Source of the DNA: Naegleria gruberi
Lineage: Eukaryota
Reading direction: 5' to 3' (one strand)
Assembly (NCBI GenBank): GCA_000004985.1
Contig: GG738854.1
Length of the DNA stretch: 64,000 nt
A program made the position numbers and the translations under genes. Below, one piece after another: positions 55,802 through 57,599 of this stretch (position 1 is the stretch's first letter; each line of letters starts with the position of its first letter). The notes beneath the pieces were generated by a model, which saw only the letters and a program-made list of their open reading frames with translations, did not search any database and was not told where the DNA came from.

Positions 55802-57599
55802 TTATCCTCAACATCCATCTTTTTCAGCACTGTTTCCTGATCTCTTGGTTATTGAGAGAAGGGTCATTTCCTCAGCTGCTGTAGGGTGAATTCCAATTGT
55901 ATTATCAAAGTGTTCTTTTGTTGCTCCAGCTCTGTGTAAATTGTGTTAGTTTTAATTTCACAACCCAATTTCTAGAATACTTACTTGATGGCAACAGCAA
56001 TTCCTTGAGTTATTTCGCCAGCATTAGCTCCAACATAGTGGAATCCAATAACCTTTTCATTGGCTGATTTTAGAGTAATGATTTTCATGAAAGTCTTGTT
56101 GGTATCTCTGTGAGATAATTGATGTTCTATTGGAGAATAAAGTGAAATGTACACTTCAATATCATCTTCGCCATATCTTTGGACAGCTTCCTCTTCAGAA
56201 AGTCCACAACATCCATATTCATAAGGGTGAGTGAATATCGACGTTGGAACATTGTCGTAATCCATTAATTCGGTACCCTTGTTGGTCAATCGACTGGCTA
56301 ATAATTTACCAGCCCTAATTGCAACAGGTGTGAGTTCAGTTTTTTTCTATTTTTCCAATTAATTATAATTCAAGTATTCCATAAACCTACATTAATACAA
56401 TCTCCAATGGCATAGATATGCTTCTTTGATGTTTGTTCATTGTCAGAGACGATAATTTTTCCACTTTCGTCCATATCCAAATCAATATTCAACTCCTTAG
56501 TGACAGCTCTCCTTCCAACTGCAAACATGATGGTTTTGTAATTTTCAGTATAAACTTGTTGAGTGGAAAGATCCTTATAATGAACTGTATATTCGCCTGT
56601 TGTTTCGTGGTCTGAAGATTTTTCAATTTTCACTGGAATGCACTGTTCCAAGAATTTTACACCTCTTTCTTTCATTCCATCCACAACTTTCCAGGCACAC
56701 TCCTGGTCGAATCCTCTCAATGGAATGGAACGCATCATGACACTACTCTCATATCCTAATCCTTTGAGGAAACTTGCAGTTTCTAGGGCAATGTATGAAG
56801 CTCCAATCACGAGAGTTTTTCCAGGTTCTTCCTTCAATGAAAATATATCATCTGAAGTGATTGCATACTCTGTAGCGCCTGGAACGTCTTGTGGAATATT
56901 TGGTGTTCCACCAACACTCAAAATAATCACCTTTCCACTAATAGTTTTTGTAATTCCCTTCCTAGGATCAGTCAATTCCAACGTATGATCATCCACAAAT
57001 CTTCCCTTCATATTCAAATAATATAATTTCTTTAAAGATGGATCTTCATTATCAAATGCATAGGTTTGAGTCACACTGGTTCTATATCCAAAATTCAATG
57101 ACTTGATATATTGCTGTACATTTGCAACAAGTGTTTTCCAATCATGTTTTCCACTCAATTTTCCTTCCTGCTTTCCATCATTCCATCCAAAATATTCAGC
57201 ATCATGATTAATTCCCTCTCCAATCAATGCCGAATTATGCATCAATTTCTTTGGAATACATCCAACATTAACACATGTTCCACCTAATTGCCACATCCAT
57301 CCATTCAACTTTCCATTTCTTTCTCTCAACCATTGAGAAGAAGGATCCCGATAATCTAATAAACAAATTCTAGTTTCCTTCGATGATAAACTTGATAATT
57401 GCTTGGAGAGAGAAAGCCCGCCAGAACCTCCTCCAATCACAATGTAATCAAAATGGGCGGGAATTTCTTGTTTGTTGGTTGCGCCTCCTAAATTCATACC
57501 AAAATTACGATGTAACAAATTGCTTTGCTTCTTCGGAAGAGTTTGCGATTTGCCAATGAAAATTTGCGAGAGCTTCCGCCCAGTTTGATGTCGAAGCAT
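55802..57599 (-). CDS. TXNRD: High-Mr thioredoxin reductase (glutathione-reductase-like pyridine nucleotide-disulfide oxidoreductase), selenoprotein; 3 exons, in-frame TGA = Sec
   Basis: Exons on the minus strand: 56391..57599, 55985..56346 and 55802..55931. Introns 56347..56390 (GTAGGT…ATAG) and 55932..55984 (GTAAGT…CACAG). Exon 1: [12 protein letters not shown] (FAD), [16 protein letters not shown] (N-terminal redox CVNVGC), …IYAIGDCIN. Exon 2: [20 protein letters not shown]…[12 protein letters not shown]…[21 protein letters not shown]. Exon 3: [47 protein letters not shown], the GCUG terminus seen in mammalian TrxR (…[31 protein letters not shown]). TGA at 55808..55810. Confidence 0.8.

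Follow-up and report, generated by a model that had tools for sequence, protein, structure and literature searches.

Large, high-Mr thioredoxin reductases (TrxRs) of mammals, TXNRD1 and TXNRD2, carry a CVNVGC redox centre, an HP..AEE dyad and a Gly-Cys-selenocysteine-Gly (GCUG) end, which is encoded as TGY-TGA-GGN-stop and accompanied by a selenocysteine insertion sequence (SECIS) within the 3′ untranslated region (3′UTR). A protist enzyme of the large type, AcTrxR-L, is described from the amoebozoan Acanthamoeba castellanii (PMC8038987, PMC11459619); its database entry halts at the pre-terminal UGA, and selenocysteine (Sec) together with a downstream SECIS has been inferred for it (PMC8038987). 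AcTrxR-L has been expressed and assayed, whereas the enzyme of Naegleria (Discoba) is only predicted in the literature that we examined: PMC8038987 attributes to da Silva et al. 2013 a large Naegleria TrxR of the Sec type, and PMC4561486 credits the same study with the SPS2 of N. gruberi, which carries a fused methyltransferase domain. In mammals, a proximal stem-loop (PSL) next to the stop codon is predicted in six of the seven mRNAs with C-terminal Sec besides SelS, including TR1, where the PSL is described as having no known function and Sec insertion was not raised by deleting it (PMC6844570); the SELENOS PSL in its native position affects recoding (PMC3628699). Here, we analysed a 64,000-nucleotide (nt) window of N. 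gruberi nuclear DNA (35% G+C; contig GG738854.1), the minus strand of which carries the gene NAEGRDRAFT_31574 at 55802..57599. As judged from its sequence, this gene very probably encodes a Sec-type high-Mr TrxR, in which the penultimate UGA would be read as Sec with the aid of a SECIS in the 3′UTR.

A bacterial-style list of open reading frames (ORFs) breaks the gene into two minus-strand fragments, 56370..57599 (409 aa) and 55981..56289 (102 aa), exactly as reported in a preliminary description of the locus made from the letters alone. Conceptual splicing joined exon 1 (57599..56391), exon 2 (56346..55985) and the coding part of exon 3 (55931..55802) into a single frame of 1701 nt. Exon 1 starts with the ATG at 57599..57597 and encodes an N-terminal extension, the GGGSGG motif that binds flavin adenine dinucleotide (FAD), the CVNVGC redox centre (57258..57275) and the NADPH domain. 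Exon 2 ends with GIAVAIK, the last codon being split AA/A, and exon 3 encodes GIHPTAAEE, with the His and Glu of the dimer interface, followed by a predicted KDG-Cys-Sec-Gly-stop. Intron 1 (56347..56390, 44 nt, GTAGGT...ATAG) holds the TGA that closes the 409-aa fragment, intron 2 (55932..55984) has 53 nt and reads GTAAGT...ACAG, and neither length is divisible by 3.

Over 530 aa, exon 2 included, the spliced product shows 100% identity to 'predicted protein [Naegleria gruberi]' (XP_002680287.1 = EFC47543.1 = NAEGRDRAFT_31574 = UniProt D2V6C0), from which it differs at the ends only: this record begins at Met35 and terminates at the TGA. The splice sites thus agree with an independent gene model that uses the same two introns, so that the introns of the preliminary description hold. 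Its statement that the gene is hidden does not, for the gene was already annotated, though stopped at the UGA, and is broken only in the bacterial-style ORF list. At both splice junctions, the product is colinear without gaps with homologues on two other loci (L005 and L006), which encode these stretches without interruption. The position of intron 1 is common to the locus of Naegleria sp. SRR29240419 (L004), whose called protein (P0004) reads into the intron past GDCIN. Intron 2 is missing from the orthologues of N. lovaniensis (L001) and this Naegleria sp., which keep intron 1 only; on this comparison, intron 2 is a lineage-specific gain or loss.

The family of the spliced product was assigned from profiles, solved structures and homologues. 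The model TIGR01438 (thioredoxin and glutathione reductase) matched it with 560.7 bits, above its curated cut-off of 475.85, over profile positions 2-485 of 485, whereas the glutathione reductase models scored 315-395 bits, under their own cut-offs of 480-606, and the models for trypanothione, mercuric and lipoamide reductase (lipoamide dehydrogenase) likewise stayed under theirs. Starting near residue 47 and running through to the C-terminus, the protein aligned with solved structures of TrxRs and thioredoxin glutathione reductases (TGRs), among them TGR of flatworms (E 1.5e-141), TrxR1 of rat and human (~1e-137) and TrxR2 of mouse (1.4e-136), a similarity that chance does not explain. These alignments extend over the last exon, with the GC[U]G end falling on the GCCG or GCXG of the crystallised constructs. 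In an alignment of the spliced product with seven homologues (A6), the GGGSGG motif, the CVNVGC region, the NADPH-domain motifs and GIHPT.AE were invariant, including the residues at and around the His-Glu dyad (H539, P540, T541, A543 and E544). The identical GenBank protein carries the Pfam domains PF07992, PF00070 and PF02852 only. No glutaredoxin domain (PF00462) was found on it, unlike many TGR matches in the same table, and the 46 residues ahead of the FAD motif form a basic extension with no glutaredoxin similarity in the structure matches or the alignment; the lack of this domain marks the protein as a TrxR and not a TGR. Overall, these data indicate that the gene product is a high-Mr thioredoxin reductase of the TIGR01438 subfamily, complete and with the CVNVGC centre, as had been proposed; the proposed last exon, too, aligns to the family. 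Compared with animal TrxRs, two insertions were seen: one of about 10 aa directly before CVNVGC (residues ~86-99), common to the heterolobosean orthologue group, and one of 11 aa (residues ~177-187), which only N. lovaniensis and Willaertia also carry.

The frame ends with GGA TGT TGA GGA TAA at 55816..55802 on the minus strand, that is, with TGT (Cys) at 55811..55813, TGA at 55808..55810, GGA at 55805..55807 and TAA at 55802..55804. All annotated heterolobosean homologues (two paralogues of N. lovaniensis, Willaertia magna, Acrasis kona and three metagenomic/Logan sequences) end in ...GC, and the DNA that follows reads TGA-GG(A/T)-TA(A/G) in every heterolobosean locus (8/8). For a wider comparison, a metagenome scan, which returned mostly bacterial glutathione reductases, gave nine usable loci (L012-L020); L012-L019 are of the large-TrxR type (L018 not being of the Sec type) and L020 served as the Cys-type comparison. 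Among the other eukaryotic Sec-type TrxR loci, eight of nine read TGA-GG(T/C)-stop, and the ninth (L019) reads TGA-TCT-TGA. Of the 17 Sec-type loci, 16 thus have a Gly codon and then a second stop directly after the TGA, with variation between GGA, GGT and GGC. Since this synonymously varying Gly codon always stands directly before the stop, it must be translated. The Gly-Cys-TGA-Gly-TAA end of the preliminary description is therefore one that is conserved across paralogues and genera. The Cys-type locus L020 carries a different end, GGCGGGKCG. Within the window, TGA is the commonest of the three stop triplets (3363 occurrences), ORFs of up to 3497 codons run without an in-frame TGA, and 5 of 21 long ORFs terminate in TGA; its avoidance inside long ORFs shows that TGA has not been generally reassigned to sense. 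As a separate observation, the metagenomic large TrxR of L019 (~1790..1860) ends with Glu-Cys-TGA-Ser-TGA (ECUS) instead of GCUG and has an 11-bp hairpin 5 nt past the stop.

The 3′UTR contains a conserved type-II SECIS-like structure at 55653..55723 on the minus strand, so that the SECIS implied by the preliminary description was indeed found. From 55723 to 55653, it reads UGAAAUGAG-C-GUGA-C-GUUAUC-CCAU-GAC-AAA-GUAC-CAAA-GUAC-A-GUC-CA-GACAAC-U-GAC-UUU-UUUAUUUCA. Helix I is formed by UGAAAUGAG and UUUAUUUCA, the core GUGA (55710..55713) lies opposite UGA (55666..55668) and 94 nt 3′ of the recoded UGA candidate, helix II pairs GUUAUC..GAC with GUC..GACAAC, and the unpaired AAA (55693..55695) precedes a mini-stem, GUAC-CAAA-GUAC. 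An AATAAA poly(A) signal, read from the sequence, stands 11 nt 3′ of this element (55637..55642) and implies a 3′UTR of about 180-200 nt. A covariance model (R1), built only from the elements of N. lovaniensis and Naegleria sp. (L004) with the window sequence left out, matched 55649..55727 on the minus strand with 22.1 bits (E 0.0061); this was its sole match, and no second SECIS of the Naegleria type was found with it in the window.

The minimum-free-energy folds of seven heterolobosean elements share one architecture, consisting of helix I, an internal loop, helix II, unpaired A's and a mini-stem. Helix II reads GUUAUC/GACAAC in N. gruberi and AUUACAU/AUGUAAU in N. lovaniensis, and the mini-stem GUAC/GUAC and CGUAU/AUACG, respectively, with compensatory changes in both. 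In a seven-sequence alignment made by hand (A5), standard pairs fill 98.6% of 147 cells, and in 21 of 28 pairs both partners vary, figures that are inflated because the alignment was fitted to the structure; slid controls of the same alignment are only 32-55% paired. The only invariant columns are the 5′ core UGA and the 3′ core UGA. Unpaired AA or AAA occurs in six of the seven elements (L005 has CCA), and the core is GUGA in the three Naegleria orthologues and AUGA in Willaertia, Acrasis, L005 and the N. lovaniensis paralogue. RNAalifold returned zero pairs on a MAFFT alignment of the seven candidates because MAFFT misaligned them. Several other candidates were set aside. Two AUGA motifs (55717..55720 and 55697..55700) were rejected as SECIS cores, as they have no helix II in register and the conserved GUGA lies between them. 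A second covariance model (R2), for which a hand alignment padded with N's served as the seed, was discarded: it scored the window SECIS at 12.5 bits, in the noise, and left several of its seeds unrecovered, so that its matches at 39478, 4518 and elsewhere are to be disregarded.

Several observations weigh against a Sec-encoding gene at this locus. Besides the hand-fitted pair statistics, the core is GUGA rather than AUGA, and the AAA lies 14 nt past it, slightly beyond the usual core-to-AAA spacing of 10-13 nt in SECISearch patterns. No Rfam SECIS model matched at the gathering threshold in the whole window, nor at E<=10 in 55200..55950. Rfam likewise missed the canonical AUGA elements of four related loci (L002, L003, L005 and L008), so that this negative has little weight and points to a model that is insensitive to the clade. 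Within the window, ARAGORN found no tRNA, hence no tRNA-Sec, and Pfam found no Sec-machinery gene among the neighbouring genes. The abstract of da Silva et al. 2013 reportedly lists PSTK, SepSecS, SelD/SPS2, EFSec and SBP for the organism, along with a candidate tRNA-Sec and a putative TR3-like selenoprotein; this putative TR may be NAEGRDRAFT_31574 or a paralogue. As for the machinery itself, the preliminary description took it to be present in the organism, and the literature reports it (da Silva et al. 2013, as cited in PMC8038987 and PMC4561486).

The GenBank model, with its ...KDGC end, embodies an alternative in which the TGA is an ordinary stop and the protein a truncated or Cys-only reductase, and TGA does serve as a normal stop in the N. 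gruberi genome. However, a Gly codon and a second stop kept in all but one of the Sec-type loci would be senseless if untranslated, a conserved SECIS lies downstream, and Cys-type large TrxRs end differently, as in L020. Moreover, a mammalian TrxR truncated before Sec is catalytically dead, according to PMC3628699. Taking these points together, we consider an ordinary stop very unlikely.

A further possibility is that the UGA is decoded, but as Cys or Trp, through a variant code or near-cognate read-through. UGA is reassigned in some protists. Mammalian TrxR1 can take Cys at its UGA under selenium deficiency (references 60 and 61 of PMC3628699). Such conditional Cys insertion, however, would be a side reaction of the same Sec system. 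The very long ORFs without in-frame TGA, despite its being the commonest stop triplet, also disfavour a variant code, and the SECIS and the published Sec machinery favour dedicated Sec insertion; decoding as Cys or Trp thus appears about as improbable as an ordinary stop. Even less credit is due to a decaying pseudogene, or to introns and a stop that are assembly artefacts. The frame is indeed broken twice in the bacterial-style ORF list, but each break is a canonical intron (GTAAGT/GTAGGT...AG) and the frame is perfect once both are taken out, the catalytic motifs are all invariant against the seven homologues, and another Naegleria species shares the position of intron 1.

For a Sec-type enzyme, the chemistry expected from the family would run as follows. 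Electrons would pass from NADPH through FAD to the N-terminal CVNVGC disulfide of one subunit, and from there to the Gly-Cys-Sec-Gly selenenylsulfide on the partner subunit's flexible C-terminus, which would then reduce thioredoxin. To produce this end, the penultimate UGA would be decoded as selenocysteine, with the kink-turn core of the SECIS (GUGA...AAA...UGA) presumably recruiting SBP2 and eEFSec carrying Sec-tRNA(Sec).

A second RNA structure lies between the stop codon and the SECIS. This proximal stem-loop (55767..55800, minus strand) has a 15-bp stem with four G-U pairs and a UAAU loop, and begins 1 nt past the TAA, that is, 7 nt past the UGA. Folded alone, it reaches -20.5 kcal/mol (z = -6.45; 0/200 shuffles as good), and it is retained in, and dominates, the centroid structure of the whole 3′UTR; a stem as good was found at none of 1200 background positions. 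All eight heterolobosean loci have a stem of 9-15 bp that begins -2 to +1 nt relative to the stop codon's end, with hairpin z-scores of -2.7 to -6.7, whereas comparable stems occur at 0-6% of background positions per locus. Three unrelated stem sequences occupy this position. Naegleria and Willaertia have CUCUCUACCA.../...UGGUAGAGA, in which N. gruberi shows one C-G to U-A double change; the Acrasis-like group has ACCUG.../...CAGGU, with GUCC/GGAC versus GCUG/CAGC; and the paralogue has GACCACACG/CGUGUGGUC. In N. lovaniensis (L001, ~4910..5075) and Naegleria sp. (L004, ~6040..6205), the stem UCUCUACCACU/AGUGGUAGAGA closes around an insert of 144-150 nt, whereas the loop of N. gruberi has 4 nt. 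By eye, the N. lovaniensis insert contains inverted repeats of its own.

Outside Heterolobosea, strong hairpins adjacent to the stop were seen in L012, L015, L017 and L019, bulged ones in Saccoglossus (L010) and L011, and weak or unclear ones, by the ungapped measure, in L009, L013, L014 and L016; clear equivalents are thus present in at least six of the ten other Sec-TrxR loci sampled. Many of the distant eukaryotic Sec-TrxR genes with a hairpin have UGA GGU UAA GCC..., and the first paired base lies 4-7 nt past the UGA in most cases. This spacing would place the stem at the mRNA entry channel when the UGA is in the A site, if the geometry usual for recoding stimulators applies. The maintenance of this position across Heterolobosea and its recurrence in distant eukaryotes argue for selection. 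We therefore suggest, tentatively and with somewhat less than even confidence, that the hairpin may belong to the recoding signal of Sec-TrxR genes as an ancient element under selection, common to Discoba and to animals or other eukaryotes, and not be an accident of one lineage. It probably would modulate Sec insertion against termination, or position the SECIS. If the hairpin does tune this balance or the effective distance from UGA to SECIS, the mammalian TR1 PSL would gain a function. Only in the conservation of the hairpin do the present data reach a little further than the literature examined.

The public record appears to be short at the other end as well. The spliced product begins with MLRHQTGRK..., whereas the annotated start is the second ATG (~57497). 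The 34 residues ahead of the annotated Met (57498..57599) include eight Arg, Lys or His and no Asp or Glu, and resemble a mitochondrial presequence. Ahead of the FAD motif, the orthologues of Willaertia, Acrasis and N. lovaniensis carry a similar ML[RK]R... extension, which is not present in the N. lovaniensis paralogue (P0114). Given this basic, acid-free extension and its counterparts in orthologues, translation more likely starts at the ATG at 57599, and residues are probably missing from the annotated N-terminus; the gene product is probably the organellar (mitochondrial) isoform. The stop codon of the preceding gene lies a mere 78 nt upstream of this ATG. At 57631..57639 on the minus strand, 38 nt ahead of the ATG, there is an upstream ORF of two codons (ATG AAG TAA), and whether it lies in the 5′UTR depends on the transcription start.

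The truncation of XP_002680287.1 at the UGA is the usual outcome of automated pipelines, and the gene model of the preliminary description is better than the public record at the C-terminus and probably also at the N-terminus. XP_002680287.1 / D2V6C0 is without the catalytic Sec-Gly end and probably also without the first 34 residues, which would mean an inactive enzyme for anyone who expresses or models it from the record. Since large Sec-TrxRs are auranofin targets in free-living amoebae, the exact C-terminus and the isoform, mitochondrial or cytosolic, are relevant. Furthermore, Rfam-based screens overlook every SECIS in the clade, and without clade-specific models such screens will under-call the selenoproteomes of Heterolobosea, that of the pathogen N. 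fowleri among them.

The neighbouring genes in the window are unrelated by Pfam: an EF-hand gene, an unnamed 201-aa ORF, F-box/leucine-rich-repeat genes, a GH5-like gene, a cyclase fragment and a cytidylyltransferase-like gene. The EF-hand gene (plus strand) is convergent and ends at 55604, about 35 nt from the AATAAA of the TrxR gene (55637..55642), so that the 3′ ends of the two genes have to adjoin or overlap. An Rfam match to snoR32_R81, below threshold and within the EF-hand gene (55526..55614, plus strand; 27.4 bits against a gathering threshold of 45), is probably due to chance. Next to the TrxR gene of N. lovaniensis (L001, 1..2359, minus strand), a 1238-aa product shows Pfam matches to OrfB_IS605 (weak) and Cas12f1-like TNB, and is on these matches a TnpB/Fanzor-like protein in a eukaryotic genome. 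In Willaertia magna (L002, 2746..2852, plus strand), a 5S rRNA gene (73.4 bits, E 8e-14) was found about 150 nt upstream of the TrxR start.

Sec-type large TrxRs, the Sec machinery of N. gruberi, GUGA SECIS elements and PSLs are all documented, so that the finding is already known, and the current understanding of selenocysteine biology is unchanged by it. Mammalian TXNRD1 and TXNRD2 (rat 1h6v, human 2j3n and mouse TrxR2 1zdl) are alike to the N. gruberi protein end to end (E ~1e-137), animal TrxR2 has 48-50% identity to it, and TXNRD2 has a presequence-like N-terminal extension as well. The N. gruberi gene differs from mammalian TXNRD genes in its two insertions, its GUGA instead of AUGA core, and a very short 3′UTR (~190 nt) with the core only the 94 nt given above from the UGA. 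Flatworm TGRs (Schistosoma and others; 2x8c and 22fc) are the best-scoring solved structures, with the GCUG end aligned and TIGR01438 spanning both enzymes, whereas the N. gruberi protein is without their N-terminal glutaredoxin domain. The SECIS resembles the GUGA_AA elements of green algae and sponges (PMC3473315), in which GUGA also replaces AUGA and the unpaired A's are kept; in Heterolobosea, however, the core depends on the gene or lineage, and in N. gruberi helix II is slightly longer, giving the 14 nt to the AAA. Finally, the PSLs of C-terminal-Sec mRNAs (SELENOS, SELENOK, SELENOO and TR1; PMC3628699, PMC6844570) and the selenocysteine redefinition element of SELENON are likewise stable hairpins adjacent to the stop or Sec codon. 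Compared with the mammalian PSLs, the heterolobosean hairpin is backed by position-specific conservation across three unrelated stems, and in two Naegleria species it encloses a 144-150-nt insert.

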